Source: Nitrospinales bacterium (GTDB taxonomy: Bacteria; Nitrospinota; Nitrospinia; Nitrospinales; VA-1). From it: a stretch of 64,000 nt of DNA. Shown here one piece after another: positions 10,550-55,029 of the stretch. Position numbers and translations under genes: made by a program. How positions within the stretch are numbered: position 1 is the first letter of the stretch; the number at the start of each line of letters is the position of its first letter. The notes under the pieces were generated by a model. That model had not been told where the DNA came from, did not search any database, and saw only the letters and a list, made by a program, of their open reading frames with translations. The DNA lies in contig OZ253496.1 of NCBI GenBank assembly GCA_965262115.1, positions 608,001 to 672,000 of the forward strand, in the 5' to 3' direction.

Positions 10550-10615
10550 ATGTAGTTATCCTTTCTAAAAAAAGAGACCCTCACACAATTTAGCTGACAT
10601 CGAAAGAAGCAATAT

Positions 10616-10695
10616 TACCCCTTCTACCCCTTCGGGGCATGAAAGCTAATGAAGAGGGCATAACAGGGGCACGAACACTATGGTTAAATATCACG
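10616..10695 (+). repeat. 41-nt mini-element (10625-10665) nested inside a diverged 39-nt copy (10616-10624 + 10666-10695)
   Basis: Inner copy TACCCCTTCGGGGCATGAAAGCTAATGAAGAGGGCATAACA; removing it rejoins TACCCCTTC|GGGGCACGAACACTATGGTTAAATATCACG. Confidence 0.8.
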
Positions 10696-10716
10696 CGCTC
10701 TTTGCCAAAGGTCTCT

Positions 10717-12018
10717 CTAAAACCCGGGTTTCCCCAAAAGCTTGAACATATTTTTCTTATAAAACTCAACACCCGGCTGATCAAAAGGATTCACTCCATT
10801 CAGATAGCCGGTCATTGCCACCGCCCTTTCAAAAAAATAAAAAACCTGGCCCAAAGAGTATGGCGAACGATCTTTAATTTTAAGGGTCATGTTGGGAACG
10901 CCTCCCTCCTTATGAGCACTTGCCGTTCCTAGCCATGCTTTCTCATTAACCGTATCGAGCGTTTCACCAGCGAGGTAGTTTAAACCGTCCGCATCATTTT
11001 TAAAAGTGGGTATTTTCAGCTGCCGCCGGGAGGACTCGAGAATTAAAAAAGTCTCAAAAATATTGCGATTGCCCTCTTGAATCCATTGACCCATGGAATG
11101 AAGGTCGGAGGTAAACTCCACCGACGAGGGGAAAATCCCTTTCAGATCCTTGCCCTCGCTTTCACCAGCCAATTGTTTCCACCAATCCGCAAGATAATGA
11201 AAAGCGGGTTGGAAAGTTGCAAGAATTTCAGTGGTTTTTCCCTTCTGGTAGAGCAACTGACGCATCACAGCATAATAGTAAGCATCGTTTTGATCCAGAG
11301 AGGGCTTGGAATATAATTTTTCACCCTGACGGGCTCCCTCCATCAATTCCTTAATATTGATCCCCGCCACCGCCATAGGAAAAAGTCCCACGGGTGTTAA
11401 TACAGAATACCGGCCTCCCACATCATCCGGAATCACAAAAGTCTTATACCCTAATTCATCGGCAAGACTTTTAAGAGCTCCCCGGCTGGAATCGGTGGTG
11501 ACGACTATCCGATCCCGGGCTCCGTCAGCCCCATATTTATTTTCCATCATCTGCTTTAGCAGGCGGAAGGCAACAGCCGGTTCGGTGGTGGTGCCCGACT
11601 TGGAGATCACGTTGAGACAAACATCCTGGCTCTCTATCAGGTCGAAAAGGTCGGCATGGTAATCGGAACTGATATTCTGTCCGGCAAAATATATTTCCGG
11701 CCTGCCCTGTTTGCCAACCTGATTGGAAAAAGAAGAGTTCAGGTAGGAAATCCCGGCCCGGGCTCCCAGATAAGACCCACCGATACCCACAACGATAAAA
11801 ACATCACATGAATTGCGGATGGCGTCTGCTGCGGATTCAATCTCTGCCAAACTAGAAAAACTGGAAGGCAAGCGCAACCAGCCTAGATAGTCTGCCCCCT
11901 TACCATACCCTGCCTCCAATCCGTCATGGCACAGGTTAACTTGCGGCTGGAGGCCATTGACCTCCAGGTCGGAAACCAAGGACCTAAGGTTTTCACAATC
12001 AAGAGAAAGGTTTGACAT
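10717..12018 (-). CDS. pgi: glucose-6-phosphate isomerase
   Basis: GIGGSYLGA, SKSGTTTEP, DDVGGRYSVLT, QLAGESEGK, DLHSMGQ, NPFDQPGVEFYK. Confidence 0.96.
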   Translation of the reverse strand: MSNLSLDCENLRSLVSDLEVNGLQPQVNLCHDGLEAGYGKGADYLGWLRLPSSFSSLAEIESAADAIRNSCDVFIVVGIGGSYLGARAGISYLNSSFSNQVGKQGRPEIYFAGQNISSDYHADLFDLIESQDVCLNVISKSGTTTEPAVAFRLLKQMMENKYGADGARDRIVVTTDSSRGALKSLADELGYKTFVIPDDVGGRYSVLTPVGLFPMAVAGINIKELMEGARQGEKLYSKPSLDQNDAYYYAVMRQLLYQKGKTTEILATFQPAFHYLADWWKQLAGESEGKDLKGIFPSSVEFTSDLHSMGQWIQEGNRNIFETFLILESSRRQLKIPTFKNDADGLNYLAGETLDTVNEKAWLGTASAHKEGGVPNMTLKIKDRSPYSLGQVFYFFERAVAMTGYLNGVNPFDQPGVEFYKKNMFKLLGKPGF

Positions 12019-14140: not shown

Positions 14141-14243
14141 AACTCCCTTTCTACCGGGCCATGCCCGGTGAGAATATAGCAACGACCCGTTGAGCCGCCA
14201 AAACTCTTTGTTCGCCTGAAACAGTTATTTCTTATTGGCCCCA

Positions 14244-14283
14244 TGTTATGATCCCTCATCAGTCTTCATGCCCCGAAGGGGTA
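14244..14283 (-). repeat. 40-nt copy of the mini-element; supplies the stop codon of the FGE-family gene
   Basis: Minus strand TACCCCTTCGGGGCATGAAGACTGATGAGGGATCATAACA; same termini as the copies at 10625 and 49563/50802. Confidence 0.75.
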
Positions 14284-14981
14284 CCCCGAGTGGGCTTGAC
14301 ACAGCGAAATCCAACATCACTGTATCTCAACTCGGGATCTTTTTTGACCCGATCAGAGGTTCTTAAAAAATGGCTGGGAGAGCTCCACGACCCACCCCGC
14401 ACCACTTTGTTTTTTTCGGACCCTTCACTGTACCAGCTCAAAGTCCATTCATTGGCATTGCCCATCATATCGTAGAGACCGTAAGAATTGGCTTCAAACT
14501 TACCAATTTTTTCTGGAGCACCCGTTCCATAAGGTTGGTCATAATGGGCACCACCCAGTCTTTTGCCTTCGGCCGCCGCCTCCCATTGCGCCTCGGTCGG
14601 GAGATTTCCTCCACGCCAGGAACAATAGGTTCTGGCGTCTTCCCAGTTCACAAACAACGCCGGTTGGCGGGGTTTATTAAAGTCTTGTGGGCGGTCCTCA
14701 TGCAATACCGATGGTTCGCAAATTCCGGCAATGAAGCATTCCCGGTAATCGGCATTAGTGACCTCATATTTATCGATCCAGAAACCATCGAGTTTCACCT
14801 TGTGGGGAACCTCATCGCTACACCAGTCGGCGTTACCCTGCTCTTCTTCGCAATAAAGACTCCCTAAATTGTATTCACCGGCCGGAATCAAAGCCTGCAT
14901 AGCCACAGACTCCACTTCAACGGGGGAATGCGCCATGAAAACGATCAGAAACAAAACCCGTTTAAAATGGGGAAAGATCAT
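14259..14981 (-). CDS. formylglycine-generating enzyme (SUMF1/FGE-sulfatase) domain protein
   Basis: [41 protein letters not shown]. Confidence 0.88.
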
Positions 14982-48653: not shown

Positions 48654-48683
48654 TGATCTTCCCCTGTTTTAGTGGACAGTTAG

Positions 48684-49547
48684 TTAAGAGGCATAGGCCT
48701 GTTTCTCGAATTCGGCAGGGCTGAGATAGCCGAGATATGAGTGACGGCGCTGCCGATTATAAAACACTTCGATATATTCAAAAATATCCTTCTTTGCTTG
48801 CTGACGGGTTTTGTAGTTCCGGTTATGAATGAGTTCCACTTTGAGAGTATGGAAAAAACTCTCCGCCACGGCGTTATCCCAGCAATCGCCCTTCCGGCTC
48901 ATACTGCACTCTATCCCATGAACATTGAGCAAGGCTTGAAAATCGTTGCAGGCATATTGAACCCCCCGGTCAGAATGGTGAATCAATCCCGGTTTCATGC
49001 CGCCGTTCTTCATTGCCATATTTAAAGCTCTCATTACCAACCAATGGGTTATCCAACGATCCATGGCCCAACCAATAACTTTACGGTGGAATAAATCCAG
49101 CGTCACCGCAAGGTATAACCAGCCCTCTTGAGTCGGGATATAGGTGATATCCGAAACCCAGCATTGACCGGGCTCAGCAACATTAAACCGCCGTTGCAGT
49201 TTGTTTTTTGCCACCGGGTGATTATGTTTGGAATCGGTTGTCACCCTGAACTTTCTTTTGTGCTTGGCAACGATTCCATGCTCGCGCATAAGACGGGCAA
49301 TACGATGCCTGCCAATGGCATATCCCTTGTCTTTCAAGTCCTCATGAATTCTGGGACTGCCATAAGTCTGGCGACTCTTCTTATAAACGGTTTTGATCTC
49401 ATCAACCCATCGCTGCTTCTCACGGCTCCTCAGGCTCTCGGGGCGGCTCAGCCAGGCATAGAACCCACTTCGTCCCACTTCCAGAACCCGGCACATCGGG
49501 CTTACCGGAAATGCTTCTCGATGATCCCGTATAAACCGATATCTCAT
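48684..49547 (-). CDS. IS3-family transposase OrfB (DDE integrase core)
   Basis: [42 protein letters not shown]. Confidence 0.93.
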
Positions 49548-49583
49548 TGGGAACCCTTCGAGTACCCCTTGTATGTTGTTCAT

Positions 49584-49792
49584 AAGGGGAATTTGTAGTA
49601 GTTGTACCTGTGAGCCCTGTGGGAAGCCGGTTTTGTGTTTTCCACAAGGCTCACAGGGTTTGATTCAGGGCACAATAGATCGTTTACCCCTTGGGCTTTT
49701 AAGCCCGTCCCGAAGCGCAGATCGTTGTGTCCTATTTTGATTAACCCGAACAGTTGCCTGGGCCACTGAGCCCGCATCGGCAAGGCTGGGAG
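49584..49792 (+). ncRNA. IS110 bridge RNA (5' hairpin, target-binding loop, donor-binding loop); ends approximate
   Basis: Hairpin 49607-49657; target guides TTTACCCCT (49683-91) and CCCGAAG (49709-15); donor guides ACAGTTGC (49750-57) and GCAAG (49780-84). Confidence 0.82.
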
Positions 49793-49800
49793 ACCAAATT

Positions 49801-50751
49801 ATGAATCAGAAACCCCATTTTATTGGCATCGATATTTCTAAACTCCATCTGGATGTTGCTGACAGCATGACTCAAGAAACCTGGCAAACCGCTAACAATG
49901 AGGAAGGAATTGCTGGTTTGGTCGAGAGTTTATCCGCCTTAAATCCTCCATTGATCGTTTTGGAAGCCACAGGCGGCTTAGAGATCCCGTTGGCTTCGGC
50001 CCTGGTTGCGGGTCGACTGCCAGTAGCCGTGGTCAACCCACGGCAAGTTCGTGATTTTGCCAAAGCCACCGGGAAACTGGCAAAAACCGATGTCATTGAT
50101 TCTCTTGTGCTGGCCCATTTTGCCAGGGCCGTACGTCCTGAGGTCAGGAAAATCAAAGACGAAGAATCTCTGGAACTCTCAGCTCTAGTGACACGCCGTC
50201 GCCAGTTGATCGAGATGCTGACCAAAGAAAAAACCCGTCTAAAACAAGCTCCAAAATGGATATGTAAAGACATTAAGGAGCATATCGAATCTCTTAAAAA
50301 ACGCTTGCGAAAAATCGATGGCGACCTTTCCAGAACCATCAAAAACAGTTCTGCCTGGCGTGAGCACGACCAGATCATACAAAGTGTTCCCGGTGCCGGT
50401 CCCGTTCTGGCTGTCAACCTCTTGGCCGGGGTTCCGGAACTTGGAGTTCTTAATCAGAAGCAAATCGCCGCCCTCATCGGTCTCGCTCCCCTCAATCGGG
50501 ACAGCGGAAAGTTCCGGGGCCGCCGGTGTATCTGGGGCGGCCGCGCCAATGTGCGTGCCGCTTTATACATGGCCGCCGTCACTGCCATGCAGCATAATCC
50601 CGTGATTCGTACCTTTTACACACGCCTCATCGAAAAGGGCAAACCCTTTAAAGTTGCCATTACCGCATGCATGAGAAAGTTATTAACGATCATCAATACC
50701 ATGATCAAAACAAAAACACTCTGGAATGAAAATCTCATTGCCAGCACTTGA
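49801..50751 (+). CDS. IS110-family DEDD recombinase
   Basis: RuvC-like DEDD (GIDISK, LEATGG, KTDVID); Tnp domain VPGAG...GLAPLNRDSGK with Ser; ACMRKLL; ORF intact. Confidence 0.96.
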   Translation: MNQKPHFIGIDISKLHLDVADSMTQETWQTANNEEGIAGLVESLSALNPPLIVLEATGGLEIPLASALVAGRLPVAVVNPRQVRDFAKATGKLAKTDVIDSLVLAHFARAVRPEVRKIKDEESLELSALVTRRRQLIEMLTKEKTRLKQAPKWICKDIKEHIESLKKRLRKIDGDLSRTIKNSSAWREHDQIIQSVPGAGPVLAVNLLAGVPELGVLNQKQIAALIGLAPLNRDSGKFRGRRCIWGGRANVRAALYMAAVTAMQHNPVIRTFYTRLIEKGKPFKVAITACMRKLLTIINTMIKTKTLWNENLIAST

Positions 50752-50802
50752 CATTTAACACAGTTGCTTCGGGGCATGAAAGCCAATGAAGAGGACATCA
50801 CA

Positions 50803-51077
50803 AAGATAACTGTCGCCTTTTTTAATATGTCCCGCTCCATACGAAGGCGAGCGTTTTCTCGCCGCAACTGCTGCAACTCATCTCCCGGCTTAAGCTGTCC
50901 TTTGCCGGGAAACGCATTCCCCTGATCCTCCTCATACTCCTGTTTCCAGCGACCCAGAAGGGCAGAACGGATTCCCAGATCCCGGGACACCCGGGCAATG
51001 CTATCGCCTACTTCAATAACCAATCGAACCGCTTCTAACTTGAATTCTTTACTGAAACTCCTGCGTTTGGTTCCCAT
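50803..51077 (-). pseudogene. IS3 OrfA (HTH), 3' end disrupted by nested insertions
   Basis: RRSFSKEFKLEAV...LRRENARLRMERDILKKA; the natural end FSKGSQ* is recovered only after removing the insertions. Confidence 0.9.
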
Positions 51078-51142
51078 AAAAACACCTCCAAAAGTGTATT
51101 ATCCACACTTTTCGATGTGTCCACCAATTCAGGGGAAGATCA

Positions 51143-52887: not shown

Positions 52888-53339
52888 ATCCAACCCTCCC
52901 CCAGCCCCTCCCTATGAAGGGAGGGGAGGCCGATGTTTTAAAATCTTTTCAAAAACTCCATCCAGGTTTTCATAAACATCCTGATTGGTAAATCGCAGAA
53001 ACCGTATCCCCATATCTTCGATGGTTTTCTGCCGGATTTCATCCGATTGGATCGCCGTTCTACTGAAATGAGAGTCTCCATCGATTTCAATCGCGAGTTT
53101 TGCCGATGGGCAATAAAAATCCAGAATGTATTGGTCGACACTGTATTGTCGCCAAAACTTATGTCCACCGGCCTGTCTGTTTCGCAAAAACTGCCACAAA
53201 GCCACTTCCGCTGGCGGCATTTCTTTGCGCAGGGATTCTCTTTTGGTTTTTTCTGTGTTTCTGTTGAAAATCTTTACCATCACTTTCTACATTCCAAGCT
53301 CCCCTCCCTTCATAGGGAGGGGCTGGGGGAGGGTTGGAT
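52888..53339. mobile_element. DUF559 gene bracketed by perfect 41-bp REP-like inverted repeats
   Basis: ATCCAACCCTCCCCCAGCCCCTCCCTATGAAGGGAGGGGAG at 52888-52928 and its exact reverse complement at 53299-53339. Confidence 0.65.
52912..53283 (-). CDS. DUF559 (Vsr-like PD-(D/E)XK) endonuclease domain protein
   Basis: LRKEMPPAE..LW..LR, KFWRQY, ILDFYC, LAIEIDGDSH, LRFTN. Confidence 0.88.
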   Translation of the reverse strand: MMVKIFNRNTEKTKRESLRKEMPPAEVALWQFLRNRQAGGHKFWRQYSVDQYILDFYCPSAKLAIEIDGDSHFSRTAIQSDEIRQKTIEDMGIRFLRFTNQDVYENLDGVFEKILKHRPPLPS

Positions 53340-54711: not shown

Positions 54712-55029
54712 ATGACCGTAATGGATTGCAAAGCTTTGCTCTGGCACCTGTATATGGTGAGAGCCAACCATGGCCAGCTTTATACTGGAATCACCCAGGA
54801 TGTCACCCGGCGTTTCCTGGAACATCAGGAAGGCGGCAAAAAAGCGGCGAAGTATCTCCGGGGGAAAGGTCCGCTTAAACTGGTGTTTCAGCAAGAAATA
54901 GGGAGCCGGTCTTCTGCATTAAAAGCAGAAACCGCACTCAAAAAACTTCCCAAGCGGCAAAAAGAAAGCCTGGCAGAAAACTCAGGCAGGTTGATTCTTG
55001 ATAATCTAGAATCCATCCAGAAAAAATAA
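54712..55029 (+). CDS. GIY-YIG nuclease family protein (YhbQ/UPF0213-like)
   Basis: WHLYMVR, LYTGITQDVTRRFLEHQ, AKYLRGKGPLKLV, ALKAE..LKKL. Confidence 0.88.
   Translation: MTVMDCKALLWHLYMVRANHGQLYTGITQDVTRRFLEHQEGGKKAAKYLRGKGPLKLVFQQEIGSRSSALKAETALKKLPKRQKESLAENSGRLILDNLESIQKK

Follow-up and report, generated by a model that had tools for sequence, protein, structure and literature searches.

A 39-41-nucleotide hairpin unit of Nitrospinota as a candidate non-autonomous mobile DNA module

Introduction

The window analyzed here is a 64,000-nucleotide (nt) stretch of the genome of a Nitrospinales bacterium (contig OZ253496.1, positions 608,001 to 672,000). It contains four related units of about 40 nt, one of which lies inside another and one of which is set in an IS3-family insertion sequence (IS). 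Can so short a sequence be a mobile element with defined ends, and what might move it? A preliminary description, made from the window alone, had proposed a non-autonomous element with fixed ends, no target duplication and a preference for targets resembling itself. Mobile DNA far below the size of MITEs (miniature inverted-repeat transposable elements) has reportedly been described since 2008 by Elhai et al., mainly in Nostocaceae. On the evidence of copy comparison, the units are probably a non-autonomous mobile DNA module of Nitrospinota, 39-41 nt long and recognized by its structure.

Results

Units in the window

Unit positions are numbered from the 5' hairpin end (T1), position 16 being the first base past the 15-nt hairpin. 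Inspection of the sequence found all four units where the preliminary description had placed them:

10616..10695, + strand: host unit of the C-type (C at position 16, G as last base), in halves 10616-10624 and 10666-10695 around a nested unit
10625..10665, + strand: 41-nt unit, complete and of the T-type (T at position 16, A as last base), nested in the host unit's hairpin loop, after host position 9
10573..10717 (ends approximate), no strand: MITE-like element with inverted ends AGAGACC... and ...GGTCTCT and the two preceding units inside, from orthologous alignment
14244..14283, - strand: complete 40-nt unit inside a small hairpin resembling repetitive extragenic palindromic (REP) sequences
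49563..49569, + strand: 5' part of a split unit (TACCCCT), in the IS3 frameshift window, antisense to IS3
50769..50802, + strand: 3' part of the split unit (TCGGGGCA ... CATCACA)

The last two are parts of one unit, about 1.2 kb apart. The window holds two occurrences of the 15-nt hairpin word when up to two mismatches are allowed, whereas shuffles give an expectation of 0.15. Below, G000 is the study genome, and other G numbers are genomes compared with it (phylum set, n = 120; family set, n = 70). The MITE-like element at 10573..10717 is present with both units in G073 and in a shorter version with a different interior in G072, and the orthologous alignment shows it to be absent from G053, G064 and G074.

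Abundance and distribution

G000 is a single contig of 2,684,264 bases with 46.8% G+C. A genome-wide copy search, proposed in the preliminary description as a check, revealed a large family. The hairpin word with N in the loop is found 134 times, and the reversed control word not at all. A profile built from the first copies and searched over G000 gave 270 matches at E<=1e-3 and 390 at E<=1, the latter evenly divided between the strands (195:195); profile matches cover 11,059 bases, or 0.41% of the genome. A strict pattern for whole units identified 198, and merging copies with similar flanks left 97 independent contexts.

The hairpin word is found in 41 of the 120 phylum genomes, in counts of 0 to 337. 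It is present in 20 of 22 other genomes of the same genus and in 6/6 of a second genus; G054 and G055 have none, G074 has five and G073 has 337. When public species genomes were scanned with the motif in a 19-base version, at least 116 stretches matched; of the 80 listed, 79 come under the titles Nitrospina, Nitrospinaceae, Nitrospinales or Nitrospinota, and the other under KSB1. The cyanobacterial background invoked at first therefore does not apply, as the host belongs to Nitrospinota. Complete units with proper ends were also found on two IMG/VR viral contigs, three on one of 50 kb and one on one of 39 kb; PF01797, sought on both, had no match. A title-level literature search turned up no publication on repeats in Nitrospina.

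Filled and empty sites

The split unit of the window lies within an IS3-family element:

48656..51142, - strand: IS3-family element, 1290 nt without the IS110-family element described below, with the unit between orfA and orfB, from copy boundaries and open reading frames (ORFs)

The preliminary description had derived the ends of the unit by excising exactly 41 nt from this element. Homologous IS3 elements without the unit are present in G070, G045, G068 and G047 (blastn pieces 69-85% identical near the site), and 4/4 are gapped at precisely those 41 columns. All four retain the A AAA AAG slippery heptamer and the orfA stop. Comparison of filled and empty alleles, also suggested there, gave the same picture at orthologous sites in close relatives. 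The site of the unit at 14244-14283 is empty in G053 and G072, with equal flank length, and the site of a unit common to G000, G073 and G053 is empty in G074 (within 1 nt, 82% identity). Among four genomes compared, only G000 has a block of some 170 nt in which one unit is nested inside another; the block sits within a small hairpin repeat that is intact in G073. Excision in silico showed that 129 of the 198 units have an uninterrupted paralogous site elsewhere in G000, a tally that does not count events, since filled and empty repeat lineages can each multiply. Filled sites and empty ones have flanks of the same length, and identical units are found in two to four different contexts. Fixed ends without target duplication are thus backed by the IS3 homologues, by orthologous empty sites and by paralogous ones, and the alignments show the unit to be a discrete block that enters and leaves DNA with exact ends and without duplicating its target. 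Logan contigs of four runs, which break at repeats, gave neither empty alleles nor interpretable joints.

The G073 site orthologous to window 14225-14300 carries, instead of the unit, an unrelated insert of about 97 nt between two copies of the target hairpin. Elsewhere, MITEs of one family, some 130 bp long and with inverted ends starting GGAGA(C/G)CTTTGC, occur at G000 1874650-1874960 and in many other places. Two fixed points inside them can hold units, so that copies have 0, 1 or 2, and at least 20 copies in G073 have a tandem pair of a T-type and a C-type unit.

Structure of the unit

The unit consists of a 15-nt hairpin and a 25-nt non-palindromic tail. It starts with TA and a 4-bp G/C stem around a TNC triloop; after CA comes a tail of about 20 nt, rich in purines, and the unit closes at 3' with AYCAC plus one base. 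Among the 198 strict-pattern units, 85 are 39 nt long, 44 are 40 nt and 63 are 41 nt. In the 97 contexts, positions 1-5, 7, 9 and 11-15 are near-invariant, the middle base of the T-N-C loop is free, and the last six bases are A-T/C-C/A-A-C-R. When no complementarity filter is applied (n = 270), the stem pair 6-10 is C-G in 134 matches, G-C in 76 and T-A in 15, and such compensatory changes indicate that the hairpin stem is under selection. In a variant with a CCCG/CGGG stem, the loop can only be the TNC triloop.

A further signal links the hairpin foot to the far end of the unit. Position 16 and the last base are a Watson-Crick match in 86/97 contexts (T-A 62, C-G 22, A-T 2), and T-G in five more. 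Bases 15-17 (A, N, G) could form pairs with base 1 and with the two final bases, in which case the two ends would abut at the hairpin foot, as in a circular or tandem junction. With T1-A15 and with G17 against the penultimate C, a head-to-tail junction would extend the hairpin to eight positions with one A-C mismatch.

Five units stand head-to-tail without spacers at G000 814859-815064, four of them identical 39-nt units and the other a 41-nt variant.

Target choice

The proposed preference for self-like targets is real, with 24/97 contexts inside or against another unit (12 inside and 12 abutting, against a unit cover of 0.41% of the genome), but it accounts for only a quarter of the contexts. 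The other 73 lie neither inside nor against another unit, and many of these are other repeat families. Same-strand nesting is seen only after host positions 9, 20 and 30. Subfamilies differ in the point that they favor: the variant with a CCCG/CGGG stem and TGC loop sits after position 20, whereas the loop is taken by units with an ATAACA end. Loop nesting accounts for 25 of the full set of 198 units. With crude gene calls, 235/270 profile matches are intergenic. Unit insertion is therefore mostly intergenic and disproportionately into other small repeats. In spacers between co-directional genes, orientation is balanced (64 sense, 64 antisense).

No rule based on hairpins in general was found. 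For insertion at the boundary of the loop and 3' arm of any hairpin, stems of at least 3 bp were present at 24/97 junctions and at 12-28/97 shifted positions. For insertion anywhere in a hairpin loop, junction-spanning stems of at least 5 bp were present in 17/97 contexts, in 10-18/97 at offsets and at 66/500 random sites. Neither showed enrichment. The commonest 5' flank triplet is AAG (13/97 contexts, 1.8 expected), and no flank word dominates.

An IS110-family element targets the hairpin

The DNA that splits the fourth unit, not identified in the preliminary description, is an IS110-family element:

49570..50768 (ends ambiguous by 1-2 nt), + strand: IS110-family insertion sequence, about 1199 nt including one CT core copy (DEDD_Tnp_IS110 and Transposase_20, Pfam)
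49684..49722, + strand: internal loop of the folded 5' non-coding region, from sequence and fold
49801..50751, + strand: IS110-family transposase gene, 316 amino acids, from ORF and Pfam

The features of IS110 membership are present: DEDD and Transposase_20 domains, no inverted ends, a long 5' non-coding region and one specific target sequence. There are 24 copies in G000, 23 of them full-length. The 3' half of the hairpin follows 23/23 full-length copies and the 5' half precedes 22/23, the remaining copy being the one inside another IS110 copy. The shared core is fixed as CT by two diverged copies that lie in hairpins with a TGC loop. None of 200 shuffles folds as well as the 5' non-coding region (z = -3.4), and its layout is the same as described for bridge and seek RNAs in the available parts of those descriptions. 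On its 5' side the internal loop repeats the left half of the hairpin, and on its 3' side it is complementary to the right half; the loop thus reads as a target-binding loop of the bridge-RNA type. Together these matches point to the unit hairpin as the programmed landing site of the IS110-family element. With the unit nested in IS3 and IS110 nested in the unit, mobile elements are here nested in three layers.

Six of the 23 full-length copies (G000 121570, 736447, 1744403, 1896472, 1418004 and 2114486) have in their right flank, 13 bases on, a second, CCCG-stem unit nested at position 20 of the split host. This second unit is identical in 4/6, and the tails downstream differ. Hitch-hiking, recombination between IS copies and a preference for disrupted hosts are possible reasons.

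The IS3 carrier and its reading frame

G000 has 17 IS3 copies, 17/17 with the unit at the same place, and no empty copy. They are 99.6-99.9% identical over the full 1290-nt element, and IS3 therefore multiplied after taking up the unit. Such identity, like the recurrence of identical units in several contexts, is a sign of recent activity. Judged by the left-end junction, 10/17 IS3-borne units contain IS110, one of them truncated, and seven are intact.

In the unit-bearing IS3, reading shifted by -1 at the heptamer meets the old orfA stop. Through the unit the frame of orfA remains open, and that of orfB is open from the first codon of the unit. A single +1 step at the only in-frame CCCC, which lies in the unit hairpin and is followed by CGA AGG, gives an uninterrupted OrfAB of 379 residues with HTH_Tnp_1, HTH_21 and rve domains. 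The unit may thus have switched IS3 recoding from -1 to +1 at the CCC_C run, although an open frame is no proof of its use. If so, all 17 unit-bearing copies could have stayed active.

Search for a mobilizing enzyme

The preliminary description had the unit moved in trans by an HUH enzyme, a reverse transcriptase or a nuclease. The non-autonomous reading is retained, and the phyletic pattern speaks against the HUH and reverse transcriptase candidates. The Y1 HUH domain PF01797, which includes the RAYTs, matches in 16/70 family genomes. It has no match in G000, G072 or G073 (337 hairpins), and one in G054 (0 hairpins). RAYT-like genes of about 325 codons in relatives were also considered; at eight Y1-domain loci there was one partial unit match and no full unit. 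Reverse transcriptase is broken in G000, absent from G072 and G053, and present in unit-poor G074. The TnpB domain is absent from 5/5 genomes examined. The IS110 transposase, as a mobilizer of the units, was rejected on its distribution: it is found in 5/70 family genomes, G073 has one broken copy, and G072, G060, G064, G069 and G045 have none.

Nuclease genes fared no better. DUF559 (PF04480), with eight matches in G000, seven of them found with the ORF itself, has inverted repeats of its own and does not track unit numbers (none in G072 and G064, one in G074). Small GIY-YIG genes are flanked by a different, CGTC-tagged repeat. ORFs bracketed by units, as in REPtrons, were sought in 20 segments: of 17 ORFs scanned, 15 matched housekeeping-type Pfam families and two had no Pfam match, with no nuclease-, transposase- or recombinase-type protein among them. 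Longer versions with an enzyme gene between the unit ends, which the preliminary description had proposed looking for, did not appear, the only longer element found being the IS110 insertion.

Discussion

Relationship to known systems

The small dispersed repeats SDR1-8 of Nostoc punctiforme and relatives appear to be the closest described systems, likened here by behavior. They are said to have been described by Elhai et al. (Genome Res 18:1484, 2008) as tiny, dispersed and self-nesting, with filled and empty matching sites. Like the units, SDRs are present or absent at matching sites, insert into themselves and other repeats, make no duplication and have no known mobilizing enzyme. However, SDRs are 21-27 nt long and reported only in Nostocaceae, according to the part of the source available (PMC5861425), whereas the units are 39-41 nt long and belong to Nitrospinota. 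The units also differ in having a terminal hairpin with compensatory changes, an end-pairing signal and IS110 targeting.

With IS200/IS605 elements, the units share the lack of target duplication and of inverted ends, and a reliance on a hairpin; as in that group, base pairing at the hairpin foot may be how the ends are read. In contrast to IS200/IS605, where two hairpins lie subterminally, they have a single one at the extreme 5' end, no dominating target word, no replichore bias and about a tenth of the size, and the unit genome has neither TnpA nor TnpB. MITEs such as the Correia elements are likewise non-autonomous, intergenic, multi-copy and sometimes nested, but the units have no terminal inverted repeats (TACCCC... 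/ ...ATCACA) and no target duplication, and measure about 40 nt against 100-400 nt. The units ride inside genuine MITEs of G000 as passengers. The preliminary description had named identity with a known REP, MITE or IS family as a result that would overturn it. Membership tests set the units apart from tagged REP families, MITEs and Ssn-related motifs.

Mobility and its alternatives

We consider it likely that the units are truly mobile in their own right. How they would move can be sketched from their structure. The unit would be handled as a single strand with the hairpin as its handle, and a structure-specific enzyme supplied in trans would cut and rejoin at the hairpin foot, following the handling logic of IS200/IS605 and REP/RAYT elements. 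An enzyme of this kind is suggested by ends that stay exact in many unrelated targets, by the conservation of the termini, by stem changes that compensate each other and by the signal of end pairing. This specific mechanism, with a single strand and paired ends, is possible rather than probable. More doubtful is its elaboration into a self-guided micro-transposon, in which bases 15-17 would pair with the ends, a non-HUH enzyme of Nitrospinota or their phages would act on a single-stranded circle of about 40 nt, and the insertion in IS3 would have switched its recoding.

Several observations weigh against unit mobility or against such a mechanism. No replichore strand bias was found (82:80 and 51:57, with replichores inferred from GC skew), and this balance weighs against an IS200/IS605-type mechanism, since a lagging-strand, single-strand mechanism is expected to leave a bias. 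The 97 contexts have no common target motif or target structure. The match of position 16 and the last base is carried by three subfamily types only, and shared descent may therefore explain part of it. Neither a circle junction nor a de novo event was seen, and no cognate enzyme was found among the candidates tested. Many filled and empty paralogues may stem from few events spread by copying of MITEs and ISs or by gene conversion. Finally, since the targets are self-similar, recombination or hitch-hiking stays alive as a model, and targets inside units repeat the unit's own adjacent sequence, as homology-driven exchange would yield.

In its full form, that model denies the units mobility of their own: a few ancient insertions would have been spread or removed by copying of MITEs, IS3 and REP-like elements, by gene conversion and by template switching. 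Many copies do have long identical flanks, with 15 copies of one unit in 2 contexts and recurring MITE arms, and one IS3-borne unit has its tail replaced, not simply interrupted. The failure to find a dedicated enzyme among the candidates also fits. We nevertheless regard it as unlikely, given that the same exact ends occur in a dozen or more unrelated targets, including the IS3 coding region and sites empty in relatives, that 97 distinct contexts are left after flank collapsing, and that the conservation of the termini, with the compensatory changes in the stem, implies that the unit itself is under selection. Quite improbable is an origin as REP or REPIN elements moved by a very divergent or recently lost RAYT (Y1 HUH). 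The units resemble REPs in being short, intergenic, high-copy and hairpin-bearing and in being hot spots for IS110-family elements, whose targeting of REP sequences is on record in the accessible part of PMC1525189, and some family genomes (16/70) do have a PF01797 match. However, that domain is absent from G000, G073 and G072, which are complete or near-complete and rich in units, and present in G054, which has no hairpin; no RAYT gene is flanked by units, and the eight Y1-gene loci have at best a partial one. In REPs, one palindrome end bears a tag, GTAG (or CGTC), that is left unpaired, according to the portion of PMC3733652 available, whereas the units have neither tag (ends TA... / ...AYCACR), a flank base that would complete GTAG is present in 13/97 contexts, and hairpin plus non-palindromic tail is not an imperfect palindrome. 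Any bias against divergent spacers is also weaker in the units than reported for REPs.

Another precedent, and a very unlikely one for the units, would be the Ssn-related motifs, in which a hairpin repeat goes with a small single-strand nuclease of the GIY-YIG type, such as NTS/dRS3 with SsnA in Neisseria. GIY-YIG nucleases cut DNA without rejoining it. Single-domain GIY-YIG genes are present (G000 2573218-2573433 and 2378957-2379070; window 54742-54963), and the units share with NTS/dRS3 an oriented hairpin, hundreds of copies, numbers that vary widely among related species and use as an integration site by a site-specific recombinase, a phage recombinase in Neisseria (PMC11893778, in the part available). 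However, the Ssn-type repeat here is a separate CGTC-tagged family: direct CGTC-tagged hairpin repeats stand alongside the genes at 2573218 and 2378957, in an arrangement resembling NTS-ssnA-NTS, and the gene in the window has neither repeat. The units are not associated with GIY-YIG genes, and are only inserted into or beside the CGTC-tagged repeat. Equally slight is the chance that the units are RNA-level elements, either retro-inserted small RNAs or RNA motifs such as terminators or stabilizers that merely look mobile. An intergenic location would suit them, and the loop fits UNCG if taken as a tetraloop, but the CCCG/CGGG variant admits only the triloop. Gene orientation is unbiased (64 sense, 64 antisense), reverse transcriptase is broken in G000 and absent from G072 and G053, and an Rfam scan of 49400-51000, which covered the halves of the split unit, with intact units outside it, matched no family. 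The idea that the units are also moved or multiplied by the IS110 recombinase, its RNA serving to recognize the hairpin, would draw on the hairpin halves around its full-length copies (3' half 23/23, 5' half 22/23), on the RNA loop that matches both and on the second unit behind 6/23 copies. It is close to refuted by the phyletic pattern, with a transposase in 5/70 family genomes and one broken copy in G073 with its 337 hairpins. In addition, unit junctions show no repeated core dinucleotide, and nesting after position 9 does not coincide with the IS110 crossover at positions 6-7.

A self-guided micro-transposon, if that is what the units are, would give a tractable model of movement in the smallest known mobile DNAs. 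The units offer a cleaner system for the question of how such DNA moves, with hundreds of exact-ended copies, signs of recent activity, and three complete or near-complete genomes without any of the usual suspect enzymes. Copy numbers of 0-337 in different species of a single genus are an ideal spread for phyletic profiling. The IS110 copies provide a natural example of a bridge-RNA-type element that appears programmed against a high-copy hairpin, and the insertion in IS3 is a testable case of possible re-wiring of programmed frameshifting in a transposase gene.

Other observations

A sub-threshold match to Rfam sX15 (35.4 bits, gathering score 55) lies at window 49654-49810 on the - strand, antisense to the IS110 non-coding region. 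Genes for DUF559, a Vsr-like nuclease, occur at window 52915-53319 on the - strand and at seven other places in G000. Each lies within its own G-rich inverted repeat, and together gene and repeat look like small selfish cassettes.

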